Positions 15,867 through 44,976 of a DNA stretch of 52,998 nucleotides are shown here, in pieces. Each line of letters begins with the position of its first letter. Positions within the stretch are counted from its first letter, which is position 1. A program made the translations under genes and the position numbers. The stretch comes from a virus. Its lineage: Duplodnaviria; Caudoviricetes. A model generated the notes under the pieces. It was not told the DNA's origin. It ran no database searches and saw only the letters and a list, made by a program, of their open reading frames with translations. Where the stretch lies: positions 1 through 52,998 of the IMG/VR virus record IMGVR_UViG_3300031659_000011, one strand, 5' to 3'.

Positions 15867-16021
15867 AATATAGGGGGTAGCGCTGCAGCGCTTAAACCAC
15901 AGTGGAGCTCAGCAGTGGGCTAGTGGCTATTATAGAGCTAAAAGCCGTACACTAGGGTAGGGGTGGGGGTGAGATCGTCGCTTAGAGAGCAACTGAGAGC
16001 GTCGCTTTTAGCTTGAGTCAT

Positions 16022-16046
16022 AAAAAAAGGTCCGTTAGGACCTTTT
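16022..16046 (-). terminator. Intrinsic terminator closing the early operon
   Basis: Minus strand AAAAGGTCC-TAAC-GGACC-TTTTTTT. Confidence 0.85.
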
Positions 16047-16091
16047 GGGTAGTTGATCAGCGCCTCGCGTGCGCGTACTTGATCACTCGTG

Positions 16092-16241
16092 TTAGGGGGG
16101 AGGGGTCGGCTCAGCTAGTTTAGCCATATACTTTATAGCGTCGACTTGCTCGGGCCTTACCCATACTTTGAGCTCTACCAGCCCTGCCGCCAGTCTTGCA
16201 TCGCGCAGTCTTTTCATCATAACTTTTTTTGGTATCGGCAT
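16092..16241 (-). CDS. Small basic protein, 49 aa, possible ribbon-helix-helix DNA binder (not in ORF track)
   Basis: MPIPKKVMMKRLRDARLAAGLVELKVWVRPEQVDAIKYMAKLAEPTPPP; GAGGAG RBS. Confidence 0.65.
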   Translation of the reverse strand: MPIPKKVMMKRLRDARLAAGLVELKVWVRPEQVDAIKYMAKLAEPTPPP

Positions 16242-16252
16242 ATCTTATCTCC

Positions 16253-16435
16253 TCAGTTAAATCCAAGCCCGCTATCGTTATATGTAAGGCCGTACTCATC
16301 TACGCCCATATAGCCGAGATCGTTGGCTTTATTTTCGACGGTGTTATTGCTGTCTCCTACGATAATTGCCACAATTACGTTCGTTTCTACGTTGTAAATA
16401 TAGCCCTCCACCGTACCTTTTTTTGGTATTGGCAT
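16253..16435 (-). CDS. Hypothetical protein
   Basis: 60 aa; AAGGAG RBS. Confidence 0.7.
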   Translation of the reverse strand: MPIPKKGTVEGYIYNVETNVIVAIIVGDSNNTVENKANDLGYMGVDEYGLTYNDSGLGFN

Positions 16436-16446
16436 ATCTTATCTCC

Positions 16447-17139
16447 TTATTTAAATTTGATTTGATTTTTAGCGGCGCCATGGGCTGGGAACGCTATTAT
16501 TGTGCTACGCTGTTTGCTGCACATTTGACAGCTAGTGCACGTCACGTCGTCTTTATAAGTGGCAGGGCATATTACTACGTTGTGGCCCGCTGGACTCTTA
16601 AAGTTTGATGTTTGATCTACAGGCACAATAGCGACGACGGGCGCTATATTTAAAGCCATGAGGTCGTCGGCGTGATCTATGTTATTGCCCGACAAATTTA
16701 TCGTGAACCCGTCGCGATTTGCGGCAGCGACTGTGACCCTATTTGCCTTGATTGACATATCGTGATGAGTAAAGCTGATCACCCTGCGGCCTCCGTTTGC
16801 TCGCGTTAGCCGTCGGATCTGCCCTCGGTCCATTACTTCGTCTACGTGATAAAAATCCCCCGAGACATTATGTCTCCAAATAGGCGCGGTCATAGTTTCG
16901 ACTTTGTTAATGAGAGCGTCAAATGTGCCCCCACGCTCCCCCGAGTCTAGCTTATTCCAATTTAGTTTTGTGTGGAATCCCGACTCAGCATAGCAAGGGC
17001 TCTCGTATTTGCTAGTGCTGGGGTTCCACACTCGTTTTAAGGGACAGACTGCAGGACACGTGCTCCGTTGACTGTTAGTGGTGGGCATTGGCCCTGTTTT
17101 AGCGTTTGCTGACTTTTTAACAAATTGCACGAGTTGCAT
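16447..17139 (-). CDS. Cys-rich phage protein (gp88/DUF7227-like, possible Fe-S)
   Basis: SANAKTG, CPxxCP...CYA, WRHNVSGD and CPA...TCxxCxxC...FPAHG motifs. Confidence 0.65.
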   Translation of the reverse strand: MQLVQFVKKSANAKTGPMPTTNSQRSTCPAVCPLKRVWNPSTSKYESPCYAESGFHTKLNWNKLDSGERGGTFDALINKVETMTAPIWRHNVSGDFYHVDEVMDRGQIRRLTRANGGRRVISFTHHDMSIKANRVTVAAANRDGFTINLSGNNIDHADDLMALNIAPVVAIVPVDQTSNFKSPAGHNVVICPATYKDDVTCTSCQMCSKQRSTIIAFPAHGAAKNQIKFK

Positions 17140-17169
17140 TATCTAATCTCCTATTTACTTATAGCTGAT

Positions 17170-17228
17170 GGTCTCATCAGTGCCGCAGAGAGCGGCAGAC
17201 TAAGGGCACTCTGCCCCTAGTTTCGACC
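17170..17228 (-). ncRNA. Hammerhead ribozyme, type II (copy HH1)
   Basis: RNA GGUC-GAAA-CUAGGGGC(AGAGU)GCCCUUAG-UC^UGCCGC(UCUCU)GCGGCA-CUGAUGA-GACC. All core nucleotides and stems I-III are present; predicted cut between 17198 and 17197. Confidence 0.92.
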
Positions 17229-17232
17229 TGTG

Positions 17233-17406
17233 CTACTCTTCTGGGCTATCGCATTTAGTCTCTAACGCAACTAGTGCGTCGCGCTTAGCCAATATAGCTT
17301 CGAGCTCTGGGGTCGGACGCTTGCCCGTTATAATCTCTTCCAGCATGTAGCCCGTTATTAGCTTTTCTTCGATCTCCCAGTACAACTTGCCTAATGTTTT
17401 AATCAT
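17233..17406 (-). CDS. Hypothetical protein, 57 aa, between two ribozymes (not in ORF track)
   Basis: MIKTLGKLYWEIEEKLITGYMLEEIITGKRPTPELEAILAKRDALVALETKCDSPEE; AGGAG RBS. Confidence 0.75.
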   Translation of the reverse strand: MIKTLGKLYWEIEEKLITGYMLEEIITGKRPTPELEAILAKRDALVALETKCDSPEE

Positions 17407-17436
17407 TATCTAATCTCCTATTTACTTATAACTGAT

Positions 17437-17495
17437 GGTCTCATCAGTGCCGCTGATAGCGACAGACTAAGGGCACTCTGCCCCTAGTTTCGACC
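17437..17495 (-). ncRNA. Hammerhead ribozyme, type II (copy HH2)
   Basis: GGUC-GAAA-CUAGGGGC(AGAGU)GCCCUUAG-UC^UGUCGC(UAUCA)GCGGCA-CUGAUGA-GACC; predicted cut between 17465 and 17464. Confidence 0.92.
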
Positions 17496-17498
17496 TCT

Positions 17499-18209
17499 CT
17501 ACACAGATATGGTCAAGCGAGCGTCGGCTAGCACTGACTCTATTTGATCAGTCACGTCTAGCTCACTAGCTACTATTTTAACGATATCGTCTGCGTGACT
17601 AAATATGTCAAAGTCGTCAGCGGGCCTGTAGCCTCCTTCGTACAAAATGCTTACAACTGAGTCCTCAATCATACTCTCATCTATGACGTGATCGCCAAGC
17701 TCAAACTCTCTCGCGCGCTCGTATCCATTATCACTGAGTATGCCTAGCACTCGGTCCTCGAGCTCTTCATCTAGTCCATTATCGCTGATTATGCCTAGCA
17801 CTTGGTCCTCGATCCTTGCCTCTATGTCCTCCGCGTACTCCAGGCACTCGCAGCCGCATCCGTTAGCCTCAATTATACCTAGCACCGCCGCCTCACTGGC
17901 CCCATTAATATAGGGGGTGGTGCGAGGCTCTATAACTTTAAAGCTCAGACCAAAACTGCTGGGGTTAACATGGTCTAGAGTATCTGCGTGCCTGTTTCTA
18001 CGCCCGACCAACTTCCAGTCTTCCATTTTTCCGCCGTATATGCTTGTGTCTATGTCCATTATTATAAAGGGCAGCATAAGCTCACTGTCACTCGCAGAGG
18101 GCCCGCGGACTCCGTCCCCATAATTAAGCATCAAGCCGCTCTGAGTTACTAATGCAACTAGCACCTGTTGACCGTCGTCCTTCCTTAAAAATTTAGTTAT
18201 AGCGCTCAT
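17499..18209 (-). CDS. Hypothetical protein with acidic internal repeats
   Basis: 236 aa; four E-x-x-V-x-x-I-I/L-x-x-x-G units in a D/E-rich C-terminal half. Confidence 0.75.
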   Translation of the reverse strand: MSAITKFLRKDDGQQVLVALVTQSGLMLNYGDGVRGPSASDSELMLPFIIMDIDTSIYGGKMEDWKLVGRRNRHADTLDHVNPSSFGLSFKVIEPRTTPYINGASEAAVLGIIEANGCGCECLEYAEDIEARIEDQVLGIISDNGLDEELEDRVLGILSDNGYERAREFELGDHVIDESMIEDSVVSILYEGGYRPADDFDIFSHADDIVKIVASELDVTDQIESVLADARLTISV

Positions 18210-18421
18210 GACTGCACCTCCGCTGCAATAAAGTCCGCGGTATTTGTAGACGACTCGAGGCTCGGGCTGCTAAGTATCTCAGTGACGTCGCCAACACTCA
18301 TTAGACTTGTATATACATTGCTAGCATAAAAGCCGCCAAACATGTTTGGCGCTCCTTTGTATACCGTTCTCACTTTGTACTTTCCATCTTTCCGTTTGTT
18401 CCCGATTATTGATATTTGCAT
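18206..18421 (-). CDS. Hypothetical protein
   Basis: 71 aa; AGGAG RBS downstream of HH3. Confidence 0.75.
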   Translation of the reverse strand: MQISIIGNKRKDGKYKVRTVYKGAPNMFGGFYASNVYTSLMSVGDVTEILSSPSLESSTNTADFIAAEVQS

Positions 18422-18448
18422 TTTTCTAATCTCCTATTCATGGCTGAT

Positions 18449-18507
18449 GGTCTCATCAGTGCCGCAGAGAGCGACAGACTAGGGGCACTCTGCCCCCAGT
18501 TTCGACC
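18449..18507 (-). ncRNA. Hammerhead ribozyme, type II (copy HH3)
   Basis: GGUC-GAAA-CUGGGGGC(AGAGU)GCCCCUAG-UC^UGUCGC(UCUCU)GCGGCA-CUGAUGA-GACC; predicted cut between 18477 and 18476. Confidence 0.92.
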
Positions 18508-18513
18508 TGTGGG

Positions 18514-18801
18514 CTATCTGGTGGCGGTGGGCGGTCCACCCTCCCATAAATCTAAATCAGCTATGCCCTGTATGTAGTCGGTGGGGTCCTCCATTATCTC
18601 CACCATTTGTCCGTCTTTTATGGCCCAGTATTCTAACTCGGCTGCTACTGCTTCAGCTATCGAGAGATCCCCGTACAGTTCTACCCAGTCCGATCGGTCG
18701 CGGCACTCTAGTGCGCACGCTGCTCCAAATGATACCTCGCGGCGATCAGTTGCTACCGCTTCCATAAATGCAATAAAACTAGATAAGTCATTGTTTTTCA
18801 T
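18514..18801 (-). CDS. Acidic hypothetical protein, first gene of the early operon
   Basis: 95 aa, D/E rich. Confidence 0.65.
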   Translation of the reverse strand: MKNNDLSSFIAFMEAVATDRREVSFGAACALECRDRSDWVELYGDLSIAEAVAAELEYWAIKDGQMVEIMEDPTDYIQGIADLDLWEGGPPTATR

Positions 18802-18835
18802 CGTTATATACCCTGTTGTTGTTATGTGAGATCTA

Positions 18836-18864
18836 ATTATTACATATAAAGGGTATGTGGTAAA
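18836..18864 (-). promoter_or_regulatory. Putative sigma70 promoter of the ribozyme-containing operon
   Basis: TTTACC-N17-AATAAT in an AT-rich context upstream of the first gene. Confidence 0.5.
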
Positions 18865-19026
18865 GACTTACTATAGTTATTTATGGGCTGGCTGGGGCTG
18901 TTTATATATTGGCGTCGGATTAATGGCGTGCAATAAAGCCACTGGGGCTGCAGCGTTTAGCGCGTAGGTAAGTGGAGGCTCGGCTAGGGTTAGTAGGTTG
19001 GCGGCCCCTCTGTGTGAGCCTAGGAC

Positions 19027-19152
19027 CGCTGTTGGGCTAATCGCTGTTGGGCTAATCGCTGTTGGGCTAATCGCTGTTGGGCTAATCGCTGTTGGGCTAA
19101 TCGCTGTTGGGCTAATCGCTGTTGGGCTAATCGCTGTTGGGCTAATCGCTGT
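19027..19152. repeat. Perfect 15-bp tandem array
   Basis: CGCTGTTGGGCTAAT x8 plus 6 bp. Confidence 0.97.
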
Positions 19153-19179
19153 CTGACAATTGATTGACAATTGCCTGAC

Positions 19180-19206
19180 AGCTCTGAGCTCTGAGCTCTG
19201 AGCTAT
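19180..19206. repeat. 7-bp AGCTCTG tandem repeat
   Basis: AGCTCTG x3 followed by AGCTAT; same unit as in the 15.6-15.9 kb array. Confidence 0.9.
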
Positions 19207-19314
19207 AAGCAAACATCAATAAGTCGGTCGCCCCCTAAAGCCCCATCCAATCATAAATCCACGTGAGAGCACACTCGCTATGTGCCTCTACTAACAAAAA
19301 GACTACAAGAGCCA

Positions 19315-19655
19315 GTGTGTCCTTTTTAAGGCCCTTTAATATAAATATCCGCCCCAAGGGCGGTATATATATATGACACACACCACCGTTTTACTTAGTC
19401 TTTAGATTTCAATGACTTACGTTGGACTCCCGTAACTCCCGCACACCCACCCGCGTCATATAAATCAATGACTTAAAATCAACTCCCGCATCAACAACCT
19501 ATTTTTGGAGGTACATTTACACGTGCGGAGGTTAAAACGTATATAATTCAACAGCTTAAAATCAACTCCCGCATTAAAAGGCCATCCAGCCGCATTAAAA
19601 GGCCATCCAGCCGCACATATGAAGCTAACTACCGCAGTAGTTCCGCACGTAAAAA
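19315..19655. other. Origin-like non-coding region
   Basis: GC hairpin in an AT-rich tract, IHF-consensus sites, a 34-bp imperfect direct repeat and ACTCCCGCA iteron-like motifs. Confidence 0.45.
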
Positions 19656-19696
19656 AGCGCCTTTCTAGACGCCTTTTTACCCATTTATGGCAGGAG

Positions 19697-20173
19697 CTAA
19701 ACACCTCGAACATACACGTGCGGCGACGCACTTTTACCCGCCGATTGACCAGCAGCAGCTGAGTTTATATCCTTGAGCACAGCTTTGAGCGTTAGCTCTG
19801 ACCTTTCTAAATCTGCTTCGAGCGCTATTATCTCAGCATGTACCCACGCGTGCACCTCTGAGTCGGGGCGGACCCGCTCGCTCAATAGCTCCTTAGACTT
19901 GACGCCGTCCTCACTGCCAAGACCAAGTTGGGTGGTTATGTAGTCGTGCACCTCGCCGACATTTTCAAAGCTACCGAGCCTGCCATCATCAACCTCGACG
20001 CCAAACTCGGCCTCTAGATCTAGTGTCAGCTCTATCTCATCGAGTGAGTCAGCGCCCAAATCGTCAGCAAAGCGGCTTGACCGAGTCACGTTGACAACTC
20101 CAAAACTGGAAATGATAATGTTGTCAATGGCTTGAATGACATCGTCCCTACTTCTGTGCAGTGCTTTACTCAT
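19697..20173 (-). CDS. acpP: Acyl carrier protein domain fused to a C-terminal extension
   Basis: F.DDLGADSLD.IEL...LE.EFGVEV.D with an intact phosphopantetheine Ser. Confidence 0.85.
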   Translation of the reverse strand: MSKALHRSRDDVIQAIDNIIISSFGVVNVTRSSRFADDLGADSLDEIELTLDLEAEFGVEVDDGRLGSFENVGEVHDYITTQLGLGSEDGVKSKELLSERVRPDSEVHAWVHAEIIALEADLERSELTLKAVLKDINSAAAGQSAGKSASPHVYVRGV

Positions 20174-20177
20174 AATA

Positions 20178-20423
20178 TTAATCCTCGGTTATTACCTTTA
20201 ATTCGGTCTCGAGCCAGACTTTAGCGCCGCAAGGCAAAGGCTTATCTGGCCTGTACACTAACTTAGCGACGACGTCGCCTTTGCTGTCAATCAGTGATGC
20301 TGAGTTGCATTTACGATTATTTATGTAATCTTTAACCGTCAGCACTGGCATATTTGCGCCTTTTATATTAGCACGTATGTGGTGTTGATTGACATGCAAT
20401 TTAGTCTTCATATCCCTCCCCAT
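20178..20423 (-). CDS. Conserved phage hypothetical protein
   Basis: HVNQH.IRAN...PLPCGAKVWLET. Confidence 0.65.
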   Translation of the reverse strand: MGRDMKTKLHVNQHHIRANIKGANMPVLTVKDYINNRKCNSASLIDSKGDVVAKLVYRPDKPLPCGAKVWLETELKVITED

Positions 20424-20494
20424 TTACTGATTTGTGCTACTAGATCAGGTAGCAGCGCTTCTTTGTTTTCAATCATTTTAAACTTCCCCTAGAA

Positions 20495-20842
20495 TTAGGC
20501 GTATTTGGCCTGTAGTAATGTAGTCGCTCGCTTCTCGATAAAAAGAAGACAGCTTGCAGCAGCGAAAAAATCATCGTCGTCGATATAAAGGCCGAAATCT
20601 AAGCCTAATTCGCGCAATTCACTGTCATACGGGCCATCGTCACCGTCCATTAGTCGCGGGTCGTTTTTCCCGCAGGCACAGGTGGGCCAATCATTTGCCA
20701 TGAGGTTATGATGCTCGGAAAACTCGCCCTTAATCTCAGCTTTTATTATTGCTTCCCCCCAGTAGCTCTCATGTATACCATTTTTCCGTAAAAAAGATTC
20801 TGCTTGTTTAAGCACTTGTGCTGCCTTCTTGTTTGTTTTCAT
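20495..20842 (-). CDS. Hypothetical protein
   Basis: 115 aa; AGGAGATAAG RBS. Confidence 0.7.
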   Translation of the reverse strand: MKTNKKAAQVLKQAESFLRKNGIHESYWGEAIIKAEIKGEFSEHHNLMANDWPTCACGKNDPRLMDGDDGPYDSELRELGLDFGLYIDDDDFFAAASCLLFIEKRATTLLQAKYA

Positions 20843-20878
20843 AACTTATCTCCTGTTGCTGTTAGTGTACGTTGTTGC

Positions 20879-21070
20879 TCATGGTGTACGTTTAGTTGTG
20901 GGTCCAGCTTGCGTAAGCTCAAACCTCTCTACTATGTAAAACTCGTGGTTATCGCGAATAGCTGACTCATTGAGTTGATCGCTATAGGCCTGCGCCTGCG
21001 CTTGACTATCAAACACTTTAATAACTTTGTCGGCGAGATTATCGTGCCGCATAACTATGTATAGATACAT
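20879..21070 (-). CDS. Hypothetical protein
   Basis: 63 aa; GAGG RBS. Confidence 0.65.
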   Translation of the reverse strand: MYLYIVMRHDNLADKVIKVFDSQAQAQAYSDQLNESAIRDNHEFYIVERFELTQAGPTTKRTP

Positions 21071-33138: not shown

Positions 33139-36100
33139 TTAATCCTCTAGAAAACGCTCGGACCCTTCCATCACTCGCTGCGCTACGCGGTTCATTCTCC
33201 TTTGTATTAGCTGCGATCTCTGCTGCTTAATCTCTGGACTATAATCGCTGCGCAGTACGGCTTCTCTTTCCTTCCGCAGATTCCTTAACGTCTTTTGTGT
33301 CTTCAGGAGAGCTGGGAGTGCACGCAATCTCTTCTTGTTATCACCATGGAGCTCCCTAGCGGCGTCAAGCCCTTGTCTGTCGGTCTTTGCTAACGCTTTT
33401 ATCGTAGTGCTTATCTCTTCGAGGTCGCCTAGTGTGTCATAAAAGTCAGTTACAAACTGCGAAGACTTAACCCTATCGCCTTTGAAGATGGCGCCAATCA
33501 ATGGCATATCAGGGAGGCCTATAGGGGTCTTAGTGGGGTTATCAGACGCCGCTCTTACCGCCATGTCTGCCGCTTTTAAAACGTAGGCCCCTAGCGTTCC
33601 AGTGTAACCCTTCCACAGGTGCTGCAATCTCTTAGGGGAAAGTCCGAGCCACTCAGCTAGGTCAGTGTCCCCTGCTGCCATGGCGAGATCGGAGGTGTAT
33701 GAGTTAAACCGTTGGCTACTAATCTTCCCTTGATCGGATCTACTCTCAATGGGCGTGTCAAAAAACACAGATCTGTTAGCAAACACTTCAGCAATAGGTA
33801 GAGCAAACTGAGGTATAGGGTTCAGCCCTAGCGTAGTTATAAGCCCGTGTACTATCGACCACGTCACTTTTTCGCTGGGTTGAGACTCAGATATCCAAGC
33901 CCGATACATACGCTCAGGTATTGTGCCAGCAATGATACCTATCTCAAAAGGCTTGGGAATTGCCCAGTGTTGTTCGCCCATAAATATGTGCCAGTAGGCA
34001 TCCTTCTCCCAGTCTTGTAGGTTTTTATAGCGCTCATCGTCGTCGTTAAGCGCAGCTAGAGCCACAGAGAATGCGGCTATCTTAGCCATTTGAAGTGCCA
34101 CTAGCGCTGGTCGGTTTGTACCCGCGCGACCTAACTTAGATAGACCCTGTAACCTAGCATTAAGGAAAGGGATCATATCCGTCAGGAATATCATAAGCGC
34201 ATAATTACCCCGAAGGCTGTAGTCCATTAAATCCTTAGACTCGAATAGCACTTGCGCCAAAGGCTTACCTTCCTCTATAGCTGAAGCAGCTGTGGCAATA
34301 CGACTTGAGTTTTCAACCTTGTCACCCGCAGACCTGTAGTGCTGCCAACCTCTGCTCACCGCGTCCTTGCCGTCGAGTAGCATGCTTGCCATCTTAGCTG
34401 GTGTGTCTACTCTGGCGTCCATATGGTCCCCAGCTTGCTGTCTACTTAGCCCGTGTTTTACGAGCTCTCTGCGCATTATCTCAGCGGAAGCCTCAGGGTC
34501 GGTACCGTGGACGTACCCGCCTTGGAAAGACGCTCCGCCAGCCATCAGCATGCGGTGTATTCCGTCTTCTTTAAAGGCGCTTTTTGCACCCTTAATAGCT
34601 GACAAACCGAAGGTCATTCCATCAGGGTTTATTGCCCAAGCGTGTGCCGCGTCACGTATAAAGTTCCTCAACATAAAGTCAGGGCTAGCGGTAACGCCCA
34701 CAGTTAGTAGACCTTTGAAGTATCTGCCTGCTCTCATCGCAACATTTTGAGACCCCTTATATCCTAGGTGGTTTATCGCGCTAATGACCGCTGGGTGGTC
34801 CTCACTCACTCGGTAGTACTCGGTCTTGCCATTCCGCTTAACGCTAAATACGTTAGCGTCGGTGGGGGTGGTGGCAGCCCAGAGCTGCTCATAACCCTCA
34901 GTGCTCAACTTGTTAACCGCGTTGACTATCTTTATTTCTTTAGATGTCTTATCCATACCTAGCCATTCAGCTACTTTAACCGCGTTTTTCCTATCCTTAT
35001 TTATGTAGGCGTTAATAGACGCCTTAGATATGTTTACCTTCTCGTATTCGATGCCTACTTCACTCATAAACTCCGTACCGTTTAGGTTCTCCACCATCTT
35101 TAAAGTGGCGCTGTTCTTTACCGACGCGTCAGTTAGTCTCATCCAGTTAGCTAGTACGTTCTCGAGTAGGTTGCCTGTAGACGCCTCGCTACCTGTTAAC
35201 ATCTTAATACCTGATGTCTGGTTAGCTAGGCCGCGGGCCGCGTTGGGGGATACGATACCCGCCCCATCTTCAGTCTGCCTAAAGAAAGGCACATACCATT
35301 CACTCTCCCATTCAGCTCTGGAATCTGGGTTTATTAACCCAGCCTCTTGGGCGAAGTCCAACATAGCTACATTGATTGCCATGTACTCTTCTTTAGCGGT
35401 CTCAAACTTAGCAGAGTTATCTGAGGTCTTCTTAGACTTTAGAACGTCTATATCCTCTCGGGTTAAATTGTGTTCTTTGCCCTCGCGCATAAGCTCTTCA
35501 GCTCGGTTTCCTGCCATCCACATGAACCAGCTATCCGCATCAGCGCCTAGGGAGGTTAGTACATCGAGCATCCCCTTAGTTTTGTAGTCCCCAACAGGTA
35601 CACCATCCTCCCACTTAAGGGCCCCGTGGTGCATGACGTGGGTCATCATGTCAGCAATACCTGTAGCTAGCCTGGCTGCCACGTAGGCGCTGCCCGCGAA
35701 ATCGTTAGCCGCAATGCCTTTACGCAAGAAGTCTTCAGCCTTCTTCAAACCGATGAGGCCATCAAATATGCCTTCGTACATACTGTCACCAACGTCGTCG
35801 ATGACGTTTATAACACCTGCGTCTATTATGTCGGCTATAGCCTTCACTAGACCACTACTGCGCCGCTTACCCATGCCCAGCTTATCTATCAGCTTACGGT
35901 TATCAGTATCTAGGACCCTATCCTTAGGGGGTTTGCGCGAGAATAATATATCAGGGCCCTCAGCATTATCTGCCTGAGTGTCCTTAGACCCTTCTGTATC
36001 AGACTTAGGACTACTCGATCTCATGAGGTCGAAGTTATCTGCGCTATCGGAATTGAACTCAGCGTTAATGGATCTTATGTCTGAGGGGTTAAACATTATG

Positions 36101-39100
36101 CGTTGAGGTACTTCCTCGCCAGCTAGAGCTACGCCTTCGTCACTTAAGGTGTCCACACCTATGTAACCTTCAGCAATGTACCCTTCTATCTCGGCCTGCA
36201 GGGCCTCAAGATCCGTGGTTTCATCTTGGAGTCGCTTGCCAAACTTGTTAGCTTCATTCCAACTTAGCTTTTTAAACTTACCCTCTTTTATATAGACGGG
36301 TATTACCTGACCGTCACCGTAGTCGGTTTGACCCGCGTATGCGCTGTTAACAGACTCTACATAGTTATTAAAGCTAGCGTCGGAGTCCGAGGGTTTAAGG
36401 TGGATCTTATCAAATTTGTAATCATAGTCTTGACTGTAGTCGGTTTCAGCGTTTGTCACAAAATCAAAACCTTGTTTTGTAAACTTGAAGACCCCTTCGT
36501 CCGTCGCCCAAATTCTGCCTACTGCGCGCTCATCGCCCATACTAATATCGTCGAGGACTCCGCTGTAGGAAACTTCGCTACTTGTTTTAGATTCAGGCAG
36601 GGTAGTCTTGCCTACCTTACCTAGCTCCTTCTCTAATCGCCTATTCATCTTAAGTTCATACATGCCGCCATACGATGAGGCTTCATCAGGCGAAGACGTT
36701 AGGAAGGTAAGGCCTCTAAAACCTTTGAAGTTGGTTTTAGTACCATGGTACCAAGTCTGACTGACATCAAAACCCATACTAACCGCTCGAGCCATGCGCC
36801 CTTTCTTAGACATGCCAAGGCGGCCTCTTCGGGAATGAGATACCTTGCGGCTGCCAGCGTTGTCAGTGTTAAATTCTGCAAAGATTGAACGTATAGTAGA
36901 TGTGTCGAATATAGCGTACTGATGGCTACCCTCTGCCATGTATTCGTTAAGTGCGCCAGACGAGCTCCACCTTCCGATGGGTCCAAGGTCTGTTATGTTG
37001 TTAAACTGCACGCCATCGACCCCGTGGCTGCGGGCTAACCTAGCTATCTGATTAGTGTCCATGCCTGCTGCAGATATCTCTGATCCGTCGGGCATTTCTA
37101 GGATTAGAAAGTCTTCTTTATCATTCCAGTTTGTGCTTCCAAAATCAACTACAGCAAACCCATCAGTCTTGAGGACAACAGGTACTACGGCTTTGTAGGC
37201 GTAAGTATTAGCCTGTAGAGTTTCACCCGCGGCCCACTGGCCCGTCCCTGCTCGGTGCATTTCACCCCTGTTAGGGTCAAACTCTTTTATATCAATACCT
37301 TCTCGCAACCCTATAAAGGCTTTAGCTACATAGCCCATCTCCGCTGCCCTAGCCATCCGAGAAGTCTTAGACATATAAGAGCTAGACTTTCTAGAATAAA
37401 CGGGGGCCGCCTTTTCAGGCTTCCGCATTTTATCAGGGGCGTACTCCATGTGGACGGTATCTGGTTTTCCTTTATTAAACTCTGAGAACACAGACTTATC
37501 CCACCCGATGGGCGCGTCACTTTGGTCCCAACTATCTCTACTTGACTCTACAAACCCTGCTGTTTTATAGATGTCGGGGAGCACAGTGTCAAAGGTATCT
37601 AGCTTGGTTCCGCCTTGCTCCACTGCTAGCGACATCATGCTGTATAAATTGCCACCGCCGTTTGTAAACACGCTGACAATAGTCCCGTCTTCCTTAATAG
37701 CAAAACCAGATGACTGATCCTTAGTTAAGAACACCTTCATATCGGAATACTCTTCTACTGAGTACACAGGTATTGATGCCCCAAACTCTAAATTGCTTTT
37801 AGCGTTTTCAATTTTATCTATAAACACCTGAGAGTTTTCTGGTGTTTGTTCAATTTCTACTAGCTCAACTGCTACGGCCTCCGCGGAGCCTAGTACGCCT
37901 TTGTAGTTGGTAGTTGGTTGGTGTATTAACCCCCGAATTCCTCCCAGAGTTCCTGCGTTCGCGGCCTTGTAAGTCCGTGTCTTGTTGACGCCTCCCCTAT
38001 CGGATCTATGCTCCCAGAGGATGTTTTGCTGGAGGAATTTCTCGCGTTGCTTGCCATCAAGTCCACTAGCTCCTGCTTGGACGCTGTCTTGCCCTGAGGT
38101 TGTGGCGTCTGGTCGTGCTGCTGTTGTGCGTCTTCTGGAATCATTTGTGTCTACCGCCTTGTTTATGGTTTTAGTATCTATGCCTTGATCTTTGGCTAAG
38201 CCAATTGCTGCGTTAGCATAGTCAGGGGCCTCATCATCTGTATAGCCCTCCTCTGAATCTTCCGCAGATTTAGCTGCGTCATATAATCTTTTCTCTGGGT
38301 ACCACAACAGTGCCTGCAAATCAGCCATAGTCATCTCGGCATTGCCGTCGCTCTGCATGTCAGCAAGAACGCCATCAAAAACCCCGCGCATCCACGATCT
38401 CTCTGAGCCATTCTGAGGGGCCTCTTTCTGCCCGTCGAGGTACCCAGCTAGTGAGTTTCCACTGGTTCGGATGCTCACGCCCGATTTAGACTGGTTAAAG
38501 ATGGTACGCAAAGCTTTAGACGTAGACATCTTCTGAATTTGCACAGCTACTTCTTCAATATTAGTTACCTTAAAAACCTCTTTACCCTTTGCGTTAACGC
38601 TGGGTTCTATCTTGAAATCCATGCGCAATGCTTTCTGAAATGAGGCTAACTTAGTAGGGGTTTTAGCTAACTTTAATATATGCTTCTCTAGCTCTTTTCC
38701 TTTAGACGCTACCATATCAGGCCTGCGCTCTATGAGACTACCTGTCCATCTGCCCCAAGTTCGCATCAGCCAACGGTCTATGGTCAATTGGTCAAAGTGG
38801 CCGTTCAGGTTGGCGAAGAAACCATTGCCAATCTTAGGGCCGAGAGTCATCGCCCCAAACACCTCAGTGCTCTGCAGCTCTCCAGTTACTTTAAACCCTA
38901 GTTTAGTTATTTGGCTAACTGAGAATTTACTTATCATGAATTCGCGGTAGGCGTCTATGCCATACTCAGCTGACTTCTCATTGAACTGAGCTAAGCTATC
39001 GTTGATTGCGCTCTGAGCCTTTCCCGCTTCTAAGTTAGTGGGCATCTGCCCTGTCTTCTTATAGTGGGAGTACACCCTTTCAGCTAGCTCAAAGTTTTTC

Positions 39101-40509
39101 TTAACCTTTAAGCCATTAGAGGTAACGGCCAGAGCAAATGTAAATGCGAACTTAGCATTCTCATCAGTAGCAATTTCGGGGTGGATCGTACTTAAAACTG
39201 CGAGGGCTTTGCTAACTGTGTTGTCATACCATCCGATAGCATTTGCGTTGCTTTTCAGGGCTTGCTTTGCGTCTTTGACCCCTAATTGTATGAGGAACTC
39301 CTTAACTTCAGGGGTAGTTTCAGACAGATTTATCCCTTGGCCTTCTACTCTTTGCTGCAGAATTTCTTTTAACTGTCGGATGTTTTTTAACTGAGTCTTC
39401 CCCGCCAGCTCGAATGATTTCTCAAGTGATGTTAGGCTTAGGTCGGAGGCGACAGGCTTGGCATCTGGAATTCGGCGGCTATTAACCACCATGGGTTTAC
39501 CCTTCGAGTCAAAGTCTCTAGTTGTGCGAAGCGCTAGAGTAACGGACCCGTCGCTGTTAACCACAGTTCCCGTGTATGTGTCTTGAGTAAACCTTGCTGC
39601 GGATATTAACAGACTATTAATTTCATTCTGGTCTAAGTCTCCCCCTAAACCGTGACGAGATAACCACAGGCGTAAGGCCTGAATGGCCTTCTTGAGTGGG
39701 CCATACTTGGCTGTTATCTCCGACATATGGGCTAGCACTTCTCGTGCTTCGGTTACTGGGTCGTTCTCTAACGCGTAAGACCCGTCCTCATTGGTGTATG
39801 CCTTTTTTAGAAAGGCGATTACGTCCATGGTAGGCTTGTGGTTAGTACGCTTTAGGTACGATATTTGGTTTACCAGCTGAGCGAAGGCGCGCTTCCCTAG
39901 CATAGTTTCTAGGCCTAAGTGGCCCACGACTTCGTGTCCCAATATTTCTATAGCTTCCTTACGGCCCTGTATAGAACCAGCTACTAGTATGATTACAGGT
40001 ACATTCTTGCCATCTTTATCTTTAATTATTGCGTATCCCCCTCCAACGTCATCGGGGTTTTTAACACCTGTTAGTTCGTCAAGATCTGCAACGGTTTGTA
40101 CTATCCTTATGTCTATCCACTTAGCTAGTTTACTCCTAGCCTTTTTAGTCCACTGACTGATTTCAACTATAGAGCTGCCGTTAGCTTTAGCCCTTTTGTA
40201 CACTACTTTAGTATCCTCAGGTTCCTTTTTTGCGGCAGGCTTAGCTTTAGTAGCTGACTTAGGTTTAAGGAGGCCTTTGACGGTTAGCTTATTTAGGTAT
40301 CCGCCTTGGCTCTTTACAAAACTAGCTAGGTCATTTCGCTCAGATAGGGCGACTTCAAACGCTGCGTTAGTGGCATGTATGTACATCTCCGCAGAGGATA
40401 TCCCTTCCGCAAAATCTTTTGCTTCCGACAGCGCTTCTTTAAACGCAGTACGGTCTGAGGAGTCAAGATTATTTAATAAATCAAAACACTTAGCTTTTGA
40501 TGACGCCAT
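33139..40509 (-). CDS. Large polyvalent internal virion protein with C-terminal LPD38 domain
   Basis: HEVVGH peptidase motif, an HhH-glycosylase-like region, a GNAT-like region, two ART-like regions (one with WYHGT), and IPFLNARLQG...IPKPFEIG (LPD38). Confidence 0.8.
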   Translation of the reverse strand: MASSKAKCFDLLNNLDSSDRTAFKEALSEAKDFAEGISSAEMYIHATNAAFEVALSERNDLASFVKSQGGYLNKLTVKGLLKPKSATKAKPAAKKEPEDTKVVYKRAKANGSSIVEISQWTKKARSKLAKWIDIRIVQTVADLDELTGVKNPDDVGGGYAIIKDKDGKNVPVIILVAGSIQGRKEAIEILGHEVVGHLGLETMLGKRAFAQLVNQISYLKRTNHKPTMDVIAFLKKAYTNEDGSYALENDPVTEAREVLAHMSEITAKYGPLKKAIQALRLWLSRHGLGGDLDQNEINSLLISAARFTQDTYTGTVVNSDGSVTLALRTTRDFDSKGKPMVVNSRRIPDAKPVASDLSLTSLEKSFELAGKTQLKNIRQLKEILQQRVEGQGINLSETTPEVKEFLIQLGVKDAKQALKSNANAIGWYDNTVSKALAVLSTIHPEIATDENAKFAFTFALAVTSNGLKVKKNFELAERVYSHYKKTGQMPTNLEAGKAQSAINDSLAQFNEKSAEYGIDAYREFMISKFSVSQITKLGFKVTGELQSTEVFGAMTLGPKIGNGFFANLNGHFDQLTIDRWLMRTWGRWTGSLIERRPDMVASKGKELEKHILKLAKTPTKLASFQKALRMDFKIEPSVNAKGKEVFKVTNIEEVAVQIQKMSTSKALRTIFNQSKSGVSIRTSGNSLAGYLDGQKEAPQNGSERSWMRGVFDGVLADMQSDGNAEMTMADLQALLWYPEKRLYDAAKSAEDSEEGYTDDEAPDYANAAIGLAKDQGIDTKTINKAVDTNDSRRRTTAARPDATTSGQDSVQAGASGLDGKQREKFLQQNILWEHRSDRGGVNKTRTYKAANAGTLGGIRGLIHQPTTNYKGVLGSAEAVAVELVEIEQTPENSQVFIDKIENAKSNLEFGASIPVYSVEEYSDMKVFLTKDQSSGFAIKEDGTIVSVFTNGGGNLYSMMSLAVEQGGTKLDTFDTVLPDIYKTAGFVESSRDSWDQSDAPIGWDKSVFSEFNKGKPDTVHMEYAPDKMRKPEKAAPVYSRKSSSYMSKTSRMARAAEMGYVAKAFIGLREGIDIKEFDPNRGEMHRAGTGQWAAGETLQANTYAYKAVVPVVLKTDGFAVVDFGSTNWNDKEDFLILEMPDGSEISAAGMDTNQIARLARSHGVDGVQFNNITDLGPIGRWSSSGALNEYMAEGSHQYAIFDTSTIRSIFAEFNTDNAGSRKVSHSRRGRLGMSKKGRMARAVSMGFDVSQTWYHGTKTNFKGFRGLTFLTSSPDEASSYGGMYELKMNRRLEKELGKVGKTTLPESKTSSEVSYSGVLDDISMGDERAVGRIWATDEGVFKFTKQGFDFVTNAETDYSQDYDYKFDKIHLKPSDSDASFNNYVESVNSAYAGQTDYGDGQVIPVYIKEGKFKKLSWNEANKFGKRLQDETTDLEALQAEIEGYIAEGYIGVDTLSDEGVALAGEEVPQRIMFNPSDIRSINAEFNSDSADNFDLMRSSSPKSDTEGSKDTQADNAEGPDILFSRKPPKDRVLDTDNRKLIDKLGMGKRRSSGLVKAIADIIDAGVINVIDDVGDSMYEGIFDGLIGLKKAEDFLRKGIAANDFAGSAYVAARLATGIADMMTHVMHHGALKWEDGVPVGDYKTKGMLDVLTSLGADADSWFMWMAGNRAEELMREGKEHNLTREDIDVLKSKKTSDNSAKFETAKEEYMAINVAMLDFAQEAGLINPDSRAEWESEWYVPFFRQTEDGAGIVSPNAARGLANQTSGIKMLTGSEASTGNLLENVLANWMRLTDASVKNSATLKMVENLNGTEFMSEVGIEYEKVNISKASINAYINKDRKNAVKVAEWLGMDKTSKEIKIVNAVNKLSTEGYEQLWAATTPTDANVFSVKRNGKTEYYRVSEDHPAVISAINHLGYKGSQNVAMRAGRYFKGLLTVGVTASPDFMLRNFIRDAAHAWAINPDGMTFGLSAIKGAKSAFKEDGIHRMLMAGGASFQGGYVHGTDPEASAEIMRRELVKHGLSRQQAGDHMDARVDTPAKMASMLLDGKDAVSRGWQHYRSAGDKVENSSRIATAASAIEEGKPLAQVLFESKDLMDYSLRGNYALMIFLTDMIPFLNARLQGLSKLGRAGTNRPALVALQMAKIAAFSVALAALNDDDERYKNLQDWEKDAYWHIFMGEQHWAIPKPFEIGIIAGTIPERMYRAWISESQPSEKVTWSIVHGLITTLGLNPIPQFALPIAEVFANRSVFFDTPIESRSDQGKISSQRFNSYTSDLAMAAGDTDLAEWLGLSPKRLQHLWKGYTGTLGAYVLKAADMAVRAASDNPTKTPIGLPDMPLIGAIFKGDRVKSSQFVTDFYDTLGDLEEISTTIKALAKTDRQGLDAARELHGDNKKRLRALPALLKTQKTLRNLRKEREAVLRSDYSPEIKQQRSQLIQRRMNRVAQRVMEGSERFLED

Positions 40510-40528: not shown

Positions 40529-40795
40529 TTATACAGGGGTCACATCAACTTGAGATATCAAGCCTTCCTCATCTCGGTGGATGTCAAGGCGGATGGGCTG
40601 CAGCACACCCTTACCTTGCGACAGTGCTTCTACTAGATCTTGGATACTATCAATTAGCCCTGACGAGGGTTCCACGTCGGGCTTTTGAGAGGAGCCGTTT
40701 GCTTTAGTTTGTTGGGGATCTTTGACAGACGCCCCAGAAGACAAGGCGCGCTGCCTCATCTCTTTAGACATAGTTAGGTTCATGATAGTAAACAC
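40529..40795 (-). CDS. Hypothetical protein
   Basis: 88 aa or shorter; C-terminal IHRDEEGLI motif. Confidence 0.55.
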   Translation of the reverse strand: MFTIMNLTMSKEMRQRALSSGASVKDPQQTKANGSSQKPDVEPSSGLIDSIQDLVEALSQGKGVLQPIRLDIHRDEEGLISQVDVTPV

Positions 40796-43700
40796 CCTCT
40801 CAGTTTATGTATGGCCTTAATACGTGAGTCGATATCAGCCAGCCAATCTCTAGCGCTTAAGCCTACCACTTCGTCGGGATTTTCGCTATCAACGACCTCT
40901 ATATCGCCTAGTGGGGTCACAGTGGAACCTTCTGGGGCCACGCTAGACGCACTAAGATTATCGTCTAGGTTTGAGGCACTATCCTCCGCACTGTCGGTCT
41001 TAGCTTCAGGCGTGACTCCACCTGAGCTATCATCTAGTAAGTTAGCTAACTCAGGGTAGTGCTTTTCAATATGAGCAACTACGTCCTCGGAGTTTGTAAA
41101 CATGCCCAGTTTGCGAGTAAGGTTGTGTATCTTACTCGGCATCTGGGATATGTCTAAGTTATTTGTCTTCCCGCTTTTTATAGTCTTAAGGTTTTTGCTA
41201 AGGGGTATAAGTGAAACAATCTCTATAAATTCACTACGCAGATCATTAACATATTTAGGGGCCATAGTGGTAGGGGCACTTAGAATATCAGCTAATGAGT
41301 ACCCTATATCCGCCGCACCTTCAATCACTTTGTTAACCAGCTTGAGGGCCGCTCCCTTAATTTCAGGGTCTATAAACTCAGGGAAGTACCCTTCGTTGAG
41401 CGAGGGTAGGCTTGCTAAATCAGTTACCAACTCGGGTCCTACAGCCTCCCGCTTAGGGTACGTGGCTTCAGCCGTGGCTTCAGCGGCCTTGGATCGAGCG
41501 CTTGAAGTTTCTTCCTGCTCTTTCTTTGGTATGCGCGAGGGAGAGGAACTACCCATCAACCCGTCAAGCAACCCAAGTATGGTCATGGTGTTGGTATCGG
41601 TTGCCATCTCCGAAGGGGTGGTAGACGACGTTTTAAGACCCGCAAAATTAGCTAGGTCTGCTCTGGTTATCTCTCCACTGCTAACGGCTTCCCTTATCTC
41701 CTTCTCAGTCTTATAGACCTTACCTACGCGCTCAAACAGTTCCCGAGCGAGGACTAACCGGTTAGCCACCGCCCTCTTGGTTCCTGCCTGTTTAACTCCC
41801 GCGTCTTTTGCAAGACTCTTTAGCTCGGTGTGGGACTTGCCCCTGAGCTTGCGTCTAAACTTAGCTAGTTTAGCTTTAATTCCTTCAAGGGAAGTGGTTT
41901 CTGGCTTAGCGGTTTCCGCTGTAGTTTCCTTAGTTTTTGCCTTCTTTTCTGTTTCGCTTTGCTTCGCATTACTTTCCTCAGTTTGTGTTGGGGTCTCTGG
42001 CTTCGGTTTAGTTAGCACCCAGCCATCGTCCACAGCCCTTGATGTGTATCCATCTAGGTCCTCCCTAGACGCGTGCATATCAGCTTCTAGCTTAGTTTTA
42101 AAGGATATTCCTTTGCCTTTGTTCTTACCGCGAGATCTAGTCCCTTTAAATACCACGTCCTCTTCTGGTCCCGCCTTTTCTACTGGGGCGACCTCAGTGT
42201 CGACCACCTCTTTACTCCCTTCTACAAAAGATGCTGAGGGTATAGTGTCGCCAGCTTGAAACTTATCTGGTGATGGAGACGTAGCTACGTCATTGTCGGT
42301 CTCTGACCCTAGTTTAATTAGTCTAGATTCTTGTCTCTGTTTTAGCTTAGATACAGGTTTAGCTTTGTACAGTATAAACCCGCCGTCCTCAGGGCGTACA
42401 GAGTACCCCTCTAGATCTTTGCTACTCGCATATATGTTGGCAGCCAACGCCGTTTTGAATGGGTATTTCTTACCTGAGTTGGCCCCTTTAGTTACCTCGG
42501 TTCGATAAACCAGATCCTCGGTAGCTGGTGCCTCGGGGGTCTCCTCTGCCTTAGGTGTTGGTAGGTTTAAGGGAGGAAGTACTTTCCCCGTTTCATCTAC
42601 TTCTGTACGGGTTCCGCTAGTCGCTGTTGGGGTGGTCGACCCTGCCTGCATGTCAAGGCGCGGCGAGCCAGCTACGGTGGTAGACCCCTCATTATTTGAG
42701 GGACCATAGTCTTTCGTTTTGGTTACGCCTGTCTCTGCTATTCGCCGCTGTTCCAGCTTAGATATAGATCGCTCTAGTACCCAGCCACTACCGTCGCTTT
42801 GAACTACAGATTTAAACTTATTTACATCTATACCTTTTTGGTTAGCGTAAAGGTCCGCAGCTTGCTTCGTTTCAAAGGGCACTCCCTCGCCCTTGTTTAT
42901 ACCTCGGTTGACCTTCCTTTGGTATATAGTTTCTTTAGTAGGATCGTCTTTAAACTTAACGGCTTTAGTGGGTTTGTCAGCCCTTGACTCAGTTACCTCA
43001 CCCGAGTCGCTGTCAATCTTAGTTGATATGTCAGTTTTAACAGGCGGGATAGCTTTACCCTGAGCGTCCACATCGACGCGCTCAACGCTAGTAGCCGTTG
43101 GCTCAGTGGCTGCGGGGGTTTGTGGGGTGTTCTTTACCGCGCTAGTAAAATCTTGAGGGTCGAACTGTAGAGCTATTAGCTCCCCGTCGGTTTTGCCCTT
43201 AGCAGTCTTTTTATCGTACTTAAATATACCAGCGTCAGAGGATACGGTTACTTCCCCCTTGTCTCTTGAAATCTTAACGTCTACATCTTCGCTACTCTTA
43301 GTAGCTACTGTGTATGTAGCGGGCGCGCCTATGCTCTCAGGCTCGCTCAGTTGTACTCTACTAGGTGTAATTAAGCTGTCTGATACGTCGCTGTATTGCT
43401 CAGACTTAAGCTTGTCAGCGGCGTTCTTAGCTATCTTAGCCCTGAAGTCGGTTGACGCGTCCATCGGCGTTTTAAGGGTGAACCCACCATCGTCGCCCTT
43501 AACGGGGACTAAGTCATCCTTGAGGCCTAGCTTCTCAGCTTGCGCCACCGCTGTGCCGCGGTCGGGGAAGGGACCTAAATCGTCTTGAGTTATGTTTGGA
43601 ACGTCAGGGCCGGTTAGGTCGTTAACGCCCTGTACAACATCCTGCCAGCCTATGCCTAGTCTTTCAGGCGCAGTTCCCTCAATATTGTTGCGGAAGTCTA

Positions 43701-44976
43701 GCTTCCCTTGACTTTTAGGGTCCATAGACACAAGCACGTCATCTATGACAGCTTGGTTTTCTTCTACGCTTTTAACCTCGGGACTAATAAACTGTATAAC
43801 AGGTTCAAAACCCTTTCCGATAATACTTTCTGAGCGCATGCCTTTTTGTAGCTCATGCTTAATCTGGTCGTCTATAGAGTACTGACGCCTGCCCACCGCG
43901 CCGGCCACCGCACCTACGGTGCCACCGCCAACTGCGCCTTGCAACCCACGCTCATGGGACTCGGCTAAATATTCTTCGGGGGTATATCTATCACCTACGG
44001 CGGTACCTATAGTTTCACCGCCAAATTCAACCTGCTCTTGGAGGTACTCAGATCCGGCCTCCGCCGTAATAGATTTAGCCATGCGAAGTAGCATTGGACC
44101 GCCTTGGGTAAACGCATCTATAACGTATTTACCACCGAAGCGCTCTGAGGCTGTGATGAGTAGGGCAGTTGCTCCGCCCACTGCAACATCGCTAGCGTTA
44201 GGTTTACCTTTTCGCCCGTCCATGGACGCGCGGTTTTGTGCAATTTCCTCAGTCCTACTGGTGAGGTATACTGGGGCCGCTAAGATAGCTGCTGCCATGT
44301 CGGGCAGGGATACTAACCCAGCCTCAACGCCAAAAGCGGCTAGAGTAGTTAGTCCATCTACGAACCCTTCAGTGTTTTTAAAATCGTCCCAGCTAGTTCC
44401 TTGCTCGTACCCTAAATCTATGTCAGTCACAGCGCTCTGAGCCTTGCGGAGTATCTTACCGCCACCGTCAGCGCTGTAGTCGGCCCACTCCTTGCCGTTT
44501 AAATATGTGAACCCATCCTTTTCACTGAGCGTAAATCCGCCGAGCCCCCCTGCGAAGGTATCACTTTCTTCTATAAGGTCGCCGACAGTGTCAACCGCGC
44601 CTACTAGGTTTCCAGCTAAGGTGGTCCCTCTGTCTACGAAACCAGCTAATATATTCCCTACGCTAAACCCTTCAAACCCCGTGTTAGAGTCTAAAGGGGA
44701 TAAGTCCCCCTCAAAGTTGAAGTTGTAGTCCTTATTTGAGCTCTCAGATTCTACAAGTGCGGGGACTTGCTGCTGCTCTTGCTCTTTTTGTTGTTCCTGT
44801 TGCTTATACTCTTCAGCTAACTGGACTTGCTGGGCCTTGTACTCCTCGGCTAATAAACTCTGTTCGCGCTTGTAGGCGTCCACAGCGTCCACGGGGGCCA
44901 CGGGCTCAGGTGTCTGTTGAATGATAGGTGCTACGTCTTCTTCTTCATCGCCTTCAAAAACTAAATTGTATCTCAT
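40780..44976 (-). CDS. Large internal virion (ejection) protein
   Basis: 1398 aa; AEAGSEYLQE glycine-zipper region, low complexity, three internal G..F.T..AA..YA repeats. Confidence 0.65.
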   Translation of the reverse strand: MRYNLVFEGDEEEDVAPIIQQTPEPVAPVDAVDAYKREQSLLAEEYKAQQVQLAEEYKQQEQQKEQEQQQVPALVESESSNKDYNFNFEGDLSPLDSNTGFEGFSVGNILAGFVDRGTTLAGNLVGAVDTVGDLIEESDTFAGGLGGFTLSEKDGFTYLNGKEWADYSADGGGKILRKAQSAVTDIDLGYEQGTSWDDFKNTEGFVDGLTTLAAFGVEAGLVSLPDMAAAILAAPVYLTSRTEEIAQNRASMDGRKGKPNASDVAVGGATALLITASERFGGKYVIDAFTQGGPMLLRMAKSITAEAGSEYLQEQVEFGGETIGTAVGDRYTPEEYLAESHERGLQGAVGGGTVGAVAGAVGRRQYSIDDQIKHELQKGMRSESIIGKGFEPVIQFISPEVKSVEENQAVIDDVLVSMDPKSQGKLDFRNNIEGTAPERLGIGWQDVVQGVNDLTGPDVPNITQDDLGPFPDRGTAVAQAEKLGLKDDLVPVKGDDGGFTLKTPMDASTDFRAKIAKNAADKLKSEQYSDVSDSLITPSRVQLSEPESIGAPATYTVATKSSEDVDVKISRDKGEVTVSSDAGIFKYDKKTAKGKTDGELIALQFDPQDFTSAVKNTPQTPAATEPTATSVERVDVDAQGKAIPPVKTDISTKIDSDSGEVTESRADKPTKAVKFKDDPTKETIYQRKVNRGINKGEGVPFETKQAADLYANQKGIDVNKFKSVVQSDGSGWVLERSISKLEQRRIAETGVTKTKDYGPSNNEGSTTVAGSPRLDMQAGSTTPTATSGTRTEVDETGKVLPPLNLPTPKAEETPEAPATEDLVYRTEVTKGANSGKKYPFKTALAANIYASSKDLEGYSVRPEDGGFILYKAKPVSKLKQRQESRLIKLGSETDNDVATSPSPDKFQAGDTIPSASFVEGSKEVVDTEVAPVEKAGPEEDVVFKGTRSRGKNKGKGISFKTKLEADMHASREDLDGYTSRAVDDGWVLTKPKPETPTQTEESNAKQSETEKKAKTKETTAETAKPETTSLEGIKAKLAKFRRKLRGKSHTELKSLAKDAGVKQAGTKRAVANRLVLARELFERVGKVYKTEKEIREAVSSGEITRADLANFAGLKTSSTTPSEMATDTNTMTILGLLDGLMGSSSPSRIPKKEQEETSSARSKAAEATAEATYPKREAVGPELVTDLASLPSLNEGYFPEFIDPEIKGAALKLVNKVIEGAADIGYSLADILSAPTTMAPKYVNDLRSEFIEIVSLIPLSKNLKTIKSGKTNNLDISQMPSKIHNLTRKLGMFTNSEDVVAHIEKHYPELANLLDDSSGGVTPEAKTDSAEDSASNLDDNLSASSVAPEGSTVTPLGDIEVVDSENPDEVVGLSARDWLADIDSRIKAIHKLRGCLLS

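Follow-up and report, generated by a model that had tools for sequence, protein, structure and literature searches.

The DNA analysed here, called the window below, is the whole of the IMG/VR virus record IMGVR_UViG_3300031659_000011 (52,998 bases), which originates from marine metagenomes and has an estimated completeness of 66%. The window belongs to a tailed phage and carries genes for terminase, portal, major head protein, DNA polymerase, primase and helicase. In a block of minus-strand open reading frames (ORFs), three intergenic gaps each hold a predicted type II hammerhead ribozyme (HH1, HH2 and HH3), and the bases that follow each ribozyme are complementary to its own catalytic core. 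This analysis concerns that 3' tail and the hairpin that it can form with the core, termed the anti-core hairpin. The relevant elements are located as follows, with lengths in base pairs (bp), nucleotides (nt) or amino acids (aa).

17170..17228, minus strand: HH1, predicted type II hammerhead; GGUC 17228-17225, C17 at 17198, 3' product from 17197, stem I 17197-17181, core CUGAUGA 17180-17174, GACC 17173-17170.
17165..17180, minus strand: HH1 anti-core hairpin; 5' arm (C3-G8) 17180-17175, loop AGAC 17174-17171, 3' arm CAUCAG 17170-17165.
17233..17235, minus strand: stop codon UAG of the 57-aa ORF, 4 nt ahead of HH1 stem II (GGUC).
17137..17152, minus strand: AGGAG Shine-Dalgarno sequence (17152-17148) and AUG (17139-17137) of the 230-aa ORF downstream of HH1.
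17437..17495, minus strand: HH2, predicted type II hammerhead fitting the same structural descriptor; C17 at 17465, 3' product from 17464, core 17447-17441, GACC 17440-17437.
17431..17448, minus strand: HH2 anti-core hairpin, 7 bp, in which A2.1 (17448) pairs with U at 17431; minimum-energy and centroid fold.
17499-17501, minus strand: stop codon of the 236-aa ORF, 3 nt ahead of HH2 GGUC.
18449..18507, minus strand: HH3, predicted type II hammerhead; C17 at 18477, 3' product from 18476, core 18459-18453, GACC 18452-18449.
18444..18459, minus strand: HH3 anti-core hairpin, 6 bp; minimum-energy and centroid fold.
18514-18516, minus strand: stop codon of the 95-aa ORF, 6 nt ahead of HH3 GGUC.

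The three elements share one layout, which runs from GGUC and GAAA through a 9-bp stem III to UC and the cleavage site, and then through stem I (6 bp with a 5-nt loop) to CUGAUGA, GACC and AUCAG. All of them contain the conserved hammerhead core, namely CUGAUGA, GAAA and GUC ahead of the cleavage site (C3-U4-G5-A6-N7-G8-A9, G12-A13-A14 and an H17 that is not G), and all have the three-helix form, with stem III (9 bp) and stem I (6 bp) closed by loops and stem II (4 bp) open. By core and helices they are type II hammerheads, for which self-cleavage is predicted. No match to Rfam RF02276 was found in the window at the gathering level (37), and below-threshold matches covered HH1 at 17159-17228 (23.7 bits against gathering 37) and HH3 at 18438-18507 (23.7 bits, E 0.057). 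The weak score likely arises because the model expects the usual pseudoknot tail. That pseudoknot between loop I and the 3' tail, a majority feature that is not obligatory, is absent from the window copies, whose loops UCUCU and UAUCA are not complementary to AUCAG and the C or U that follows it. Since HH1-HH3 are close paralogues with few compensatory changes in stems I and III, agreement among them is weak evidence. Other matches to CTGATGAG at 7807, 9210 and 39160 lie inside coding sequence and were rejected as hammerheads.

A sequence-only reading of the window had located CAUCAG at 17165-17170, 17432-17437 and 18444-18449, and these coordinates proved exact, with ctgatg on the plus strand at each site. 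It had also described a 6-7 bp hairpin of CUGAUG, AGAC and CAUCAG, which we found in all three copies; CAUCAG is the exact complement of core C3-G8 and consists of the final stem II base (C10.4) and five further bases. The hairpin and the 4-bp stem II cannot coexist, as that reading had stated, because C10.4 is common to both and GAC would be taken into the loop. HH3 does retain CAUCAG while the following 4-8 nt diverge. In RNAfold predictions the lowest-energy structure contained the hairpin for HH2 (7 bp) and HH3 (6 bp), and HH1 gave a tie, with -32.7 kcal/mol for the hairpin fold and -32.8 kcal/mol for the active fold. A seventh pair is not a conserved feature: only in HH2 and a few other ribozymes can A2.1 pair with the base next to CAUCAG.

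Four scans of viral contigs by sequence pattern, and a fifth of metagenome contigs, supplied the relatives. Applied to every locus so collected and to the window itself (2.9 Mb in total), a structural descriptor identified 472 unique type II hammerheads. Both hairpins form in 216 of 238 unique pattern matches, though the patterns demanded no pairing, and across these hundreds of ribozymes the architecture is shared while the stem sequences are unrelated. Full six-pair complementarity to the core was present in 60 of the 472, compared with 11.2 for shuffled tails and 10 for a control region 18-40 nt downstream. The tail xUCAG stands straight after the 4-bp stem II in 51 of the 472, and stem II then reads GACC, GUCC or GGCC. 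Among the matches listed, AUCAG follows GACC in 28 of 125 unique U7 relatives with a GGUC/GACC stem; the commonest other 5-mer tails occur four times each among the same 125, and chance would give an estimated ~0.1 for one given 5-mer. Stems I and III are unrelated in sequence among the AUCAG carriers, so that the tail is kept while both stems turn over fully. Pairing is kept by wobble or longer loops in variants such as AUCGG, CAUUAG and GUCAG after a longer spacer. In the gapless alignment (A2), columns 23-26 past CAUCAG read N-A-A-C (CAAC, AAAC, UAAC) in many unrelated members and CUAU, UUAU and CCAU in the window copies.

Tail carriers were 38 of 452 viral-contig hammerheads (summed) among the matches listed, and a scan of genome contigs for the anti-core form gave one match, in a metagenome-assembled genome, and no cultured host. 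The tail is set per ribozyme rather than per phage, with for example 1 of 9, 3 of 6 or 3 of 3 ribozymes of a locus carrying it, which points to junction-by-junction tuning. As a separate observation, some phage contigs (L059, L079, L030, L007 and L222) hold 5-10 type II hammerheads per few kb, one per intergenic gap. Stem II in such contigs is nearly always GGUC/GACC, and stems I and III differ; given this near-constant stem II, any 5' product could in principle pair with any 3' product.

The pairing can be followed at N7, which is the sole variable base of the core and the partner of the tail base x. Among the 51 xUCAG ribozymes, N7:x is U:A in 34, C:G in 12, U:G in 2 and C:A in 3; x is never C or U, and N7 is never A or G (Fisher 2.2e-7, relatedness ignored). 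Across the 48 distinct rows of alignment A2, 99% of cells are paired at the anti-core helix, and the 12 double changes observed were reached by none of 500 shuffles. In 281 relatives with other tails, C7 is accompanied by G in 18 and by A in 54, and at this rate 12 or more G in 15 would occur with a binomial probability of 1.2e-5. The N7:x association is specific to the xUCAG tail. A complete scan for N7 other than U returned 99 unique sequences, whose tails are mainly A-rich or lead directly into a Shine-Dalgarno sequence, and which include one C7 member with GUCAG and one with AUCAG. The complete scan for U7 with a non-A base ahead of UCAG gave a single case, GUCAG, which makes a U-G wobble. 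In the metagenome scan, where N7 was not U and any base was allowed ahead of UCAG, all 11 matches had C7, with G in 8 and A in 3. The tail was found in 0 of 42 A7 or G7 hammerheads from viral contigs among the matches listed. Furthermore, one close clade contains all four states (L262, U:A; L249, U:G; L333, C:G; L221 and L329, C:A), which is the expected path of compensatory change. The sequence-only reading had named a lack of the complementarity in homologs as one possible refutation; homologs keep the complementarity and covary at N7. The 3' flank is thus a real, evolutionarily maintained partner of the catalytic CUGANG that excludes stem II, and we are highly confident that the pairing is genuine and under selection.

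The energy balance of the two folds was estimated by constrained folding with nearest-neighbour energies for 35 tail members, with 10 nt upstream and 12 nt downstream included. The blocked fold was predicted to be more stable than the active secondary structure by a median of 3.5 kcal/mol (range -6.8 to +1.7 across the 35 members), and the predicted probability of stem II, P(stem II), had a median of 0.003 with the tail (35) versus 0.79 without it (176 relatives). The window copies spread over this range. For HH3 the active and blocked folds were -30.2 and -35.1 kcal/mol (difference -4.9), for HH2 -28.9 and -30.2 kcal/mol (difference -1.3), and for HH1, which has an extra outer helix UAGC/GCUA, -34.6 and -33.4 kcal/mol (difference +1.2). 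In the predicted 3' products of all three copies, stem I runs directly into the anti-core hairpin without a linker, and the Shine-Dalgarno sequence is unpaired. These modelled folds are consistent with the earlier idea that the hairpin locks the 3' product. The AGGAGAUUAGA motif that follows HH1 is also found after HH2 and HH3, and AGGAG and AUG are located 12-25 nt past the tail in the three window copies, where the sequences immediately beyond the tails are CUAUAAG, UUAUAAG and CCAUGAA.

Other positions around stem II are conserved whether or not the tail is present. Loop I begins with U in 46 of 46 anti-core members and in 201 of 207 others, and an A lies directly ahead of stem II in 48 of 48 anti-core members (window positions 17229, 17496 and 18508, minus strand) and in 245 of 262 others. 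In the relatives without the tail, a purine comes right after stem II in 231 of 262. The loop I U, the A before and the purine after stem II suggest a non-Watson-Crick tertiary contact, which in this subfamily may stand in for the pseudoknot. The UNANG pattern of loop I is rarer in the anti-core class (18 of 46) than in the others (136 of 207), and is absent from the window loops UCUCU and UAUCA.

The sequence-only reading had further connected the hairpin with the stop codons just upstream. Their proximity is real, the stops lying 4, 3 and 6 nt before GGUC in HH1, HH2 and HH3, but it is not tied to the hairpin: the median distance from stop to stem II is 2 nt for 43 anti-core ribozymes (interquartile range 0-4) and equally for 221 others (0-5). 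Since the spacing is the same without the tail, it cannot count as part of a hairpin-specific design; the whole family shows it, because the ribozyme takes up the space between the genes. In the anti-core class, start codons lie farther from stem II and within a narrower span, with a median distance of 30 (interquartile range 26-33; 47 of 48 members) versus 18 (11-24; 248 of 262) in relatives without the tail.

A different arrangement was seen in type II hammerheads with G at N7, in which the core reads CUGAGGAG (for example L138, L150, L172, L179, L186, L205, L211, L212 and L218). A start codon lies at most 8 nt past stem II in 16 of the 24 G7 members with a start found (28 G7 members in all), compared with 6-16% for U7, C7 and A7. 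Judged from its sequence, the G7 catalytic core (GAGGAG) appears to double as a Shine-Dalgarno sequence, in which case ribozyme folding and ribosome loading would exclude each other. The absence of the tail from G7 members, where the core would serve the ribosome, fits a hairpin that hides the core.

We propose that the tail acts as an intrinsic attenuator that also locks the product, and that each ribozyme is set individually; we consider this interpretation somewhat probable. Each element would be a two-state type II hammerhead with a built-in blocker, in which AUCAG and the last stem II base pair with core C3-G8, and the resulting hairpin would abut stem I and be incompatible with stem II and the catalytic pocket. 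As long as the transcript is uncut, the two folds would interconvert fast relative to cleavage; the hairpin would lower the active fraction and so set the share of the polycistronic messenger RNA (mRNA) that is cut at that junction. After cutting, the 5' product would be held by the 4-bp stem II alone, and once it had left, the hairpin would close over the core and make the cut irreversible. The downstream mRNA would gain a 5' end of two stacked hairpins and a free ribosome-binding site. Slower cleavage, product trapping and possibly an effect on expression would be expected from such a mechanism.

Several points weigh against this proposal. Attenuation before cleavage and locking or shaping of the 5' untranslated region after it are not separable from the data. 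The tail is optional, ~85-90% of close relatives working without it, and figures for the relatives are among the matches listed, so that frequencies are approximate. Nearest-neighbour energies leave out the tertiary contacts of hammerheads and hence say little on the real active fraction. The covariation rests on a single pair, because the core is invariant and the counted set was chosen by its UCAG, which fixes four of the six pairs, and the three C7:A members carry a central mismatch. The phage appeared in 5 marine DNA runs and 0 RNA runs of a sequencing-run listing.

Timing offers another explanation for a ribozyme with its own blocker. The blocker is the last element to be transcribed, and the sequence-only reading had suggested that cutting might be possible only in a co-transcriptional window before it is made. 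Bacterial RNA polymerase adds 5 nt in ~0.1 s, hammerhead cleavage takes seconds to minutes (roughly 1 per minute), and helices of 4-6 bp exchange far faster than hammerhead cleavage. Because the blocker overlaps the last stem II base and is complete 5 nt, a fraction of a second, after the complete ribozyme, such a window is implausible; no pause-like or terminator-like site was seen there, and we regard this explanation as highly improbable. The hairpin might instead be a triggered switch that keeps the ribozyme essentially off until it is opened or its flank is occupied, by a ribosome terminating at the upstream stop, 30S or protein S1 loading downstream, a helicase, temperature or a small RNA, and a switch of this kind would tie cutting to translation or to the infection stage. 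The predicted dominance of the blocked fold would, if taken literally, demand a trigger within the lifetime of the mRNA, and both the stop codons 3-6 nt ahead of stem II in the window and the narrow distance from stem II to the start codon agree with such a switch. The stop proximity is identical with or without the tail, however, a terminating ribosome would cover GGUC and thereby favour the off state, the surroundings of the tail showed neither an aptamer-like sequence nor a conserved partner sequence, and tertiary contacts may already offset 3-4 kcal/mol. A triggered switch is therefore unlikely in our judgment, if far from negligible. The same low probability applies to its broader form, a natural class of conditional hammerheads, about one in ten of phage type II, whose core is freed only by a cellular event such as ribosome loading, a helicase or a temperature shift, and whose N7 = G sister class uses the core as a Shine-Dalgarno sequence. 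If such a class existed, phages would cut the mRNA between their genes in a regulated manner linked to translation, and the hammerhead core would be a general translation-coupled control element in phage operons.

Two further explanations dispense with the blocked fold. AUCAG could be kept because of an interaction within the active fold, such as a pseudoknot with loop I, and match the core only by coincidence; most type II hammerheads pair the bases after stem II with loop I, as described in the accessible part of PMC3088659, and the purine after and the A before stem II are family-wide. AUCAG has no complement among the loop I sequences of the class (UAGGU, UCUCU, UUAAU, UUUUU and others), nor was consistent complementarity of the tail found to loop I, loop III or the 5' flank. 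The N7:x covariation would have no basis in the active fold, and an exact 6-mer complement arises by chance in ~1 of 4096 cases; we think this explanation very unlikely. Still less credible is that CTGATG-N4-CATCAG, a perfect palindrome in the DNA of the window, acts as a protein-binding site or was inherited with recently duplicated ribozymes, even though the three copies are paralogous. Half of the repeat is the invariant ribozyme core, the repeat is conserved while both stems turn over completely, and the G-U variants (U7:G in two ribozymes; AUCGG in L293 and L007) pair as RNA only, on the ribozyme strand. We thus retain the attenuator and product lock as the preferred interpretation.

The surroundings of the ribozymes bear on how they are transcribed. 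No promoter-like sites above chance level were found in the gaps, and an intrinsic terminator (a GC-rich hairpin with a U tract) was considered for the three hairpins and rejected, there being no terminator-like site at any of them. For these two reasons the genes flanking the ribozymes are probably co-transcribed. PHROGs gave no function for the ribozyme-flanking ORFs of 57, 236, 71 and 95 aa; the 230-aa ORF matches phrog_2554, whose function is not known. BLAST of window positions 16000-21000 against GenBank phages returned 0 matches. Elsewhere on the minus strand, a 111-aa ORF (18877-19212) contains about nine tandem AISPT peptide repeats, which imply that the DNA immediately upstream of the ribozyme block carries a tandem repeat with a 15-nt unit. 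A 158-aa ORF (19697-20173, minus strand) matches phage acyl carrier protein families (phrog_5934, E 6e-15) and would be an auxiliary metabolic gene within the minus-strand block of the ribozymes. Two very large minus-strand ORFs encode 2456 aa (33139-40509; PHROGs matches all of unknown function) and 1398 aa (40780-44976; no PHROGs match).

The purpose of the thousands of hammerheads in phage genomes is described as an open question in the accessible parts of two reviews (PMC6155905, PMC6765202). The sequence-only reading knew of no such hairpin in phage hammerheads, and likewise the accessible full-text literature yielded no account of natural hammerheads with a conserved 3' tail complementary to the core, although the supplementary alignments of Perreault 2011 may contain such sequences. 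A conserved, covarying core blocker implies that at least a subset of these hammerheads are not simple constitutive cutters, and that selection acts on a second, inactive fold. A 5-nt tail with one swappable base pair is a cheap handle on hammerhead function and provides a small natural template for ribozyme insulators that limit or lock themselves. In RiboJ-type insulators, a hammerhead is followed by a hairpin upstream of the ribosome-binding site, and the cleaved mRNA likewise starts with structured ribozyme remnants and a hairpin that make the ribosome-binding site independent of its context; the extra hairpin of RiboJ is not paired to the catalytic core.

Among natural systems, type II hammerheads of bacteria and phages clustered around small phage genes are known (Perreault 2011, PMC3088659). 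The window copies resemble them, as far as the accessible text of that report goes, in the canonical core (CUGANGA, GAAA and C17; RF02276) and in their placement between genes, with several copies in one phage next to small genes of unknown function. Unlike the usual type II form described there, they lack the pseudoknot between loop I and the tail, and the tail complements the catalytic core instead. Competing structures (AltP2 versus P(-1)) have been described for the hepatitis delta virus (HDV) antigenomic ribozyme (Brown et al. 2008, PMC2396440), in which, according to the accessible portion of that paper, pairing by a natural flank is likewise incompatible with the active fold and determines how much self-cleavage takes place. 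HDV is another ribozyme class with its blocker upstream; the blocker of the phage ribozymes is downstream, pairs with the core and not with a helix strand, and is supported by comparative data alone. In engineered cis-blocked hammerheads (Kennedy, Liang and Smolke 2012, PMC3553993), a cis strand hybridises to part of the ribozyme and prevents the active fold, with a strength that the accessible text describes as tunable. Like a naturally cis-blocked ribozyme of the HDV kind, the phage ribozymes have a flank pairing that excludes the active fold by using C10.4 and C3-G8 and that is under selection, as indicated by the covariation and the tail enrichment, and this pairing would be expected to alter the rate or extent of cleavage. 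Whereas the engineered blockers are synthetic, longer, placed at the 5' end and freed by a DNA activator, the phage tail is natural, forms 6 bp, lies at the 3' end and has no known activator.

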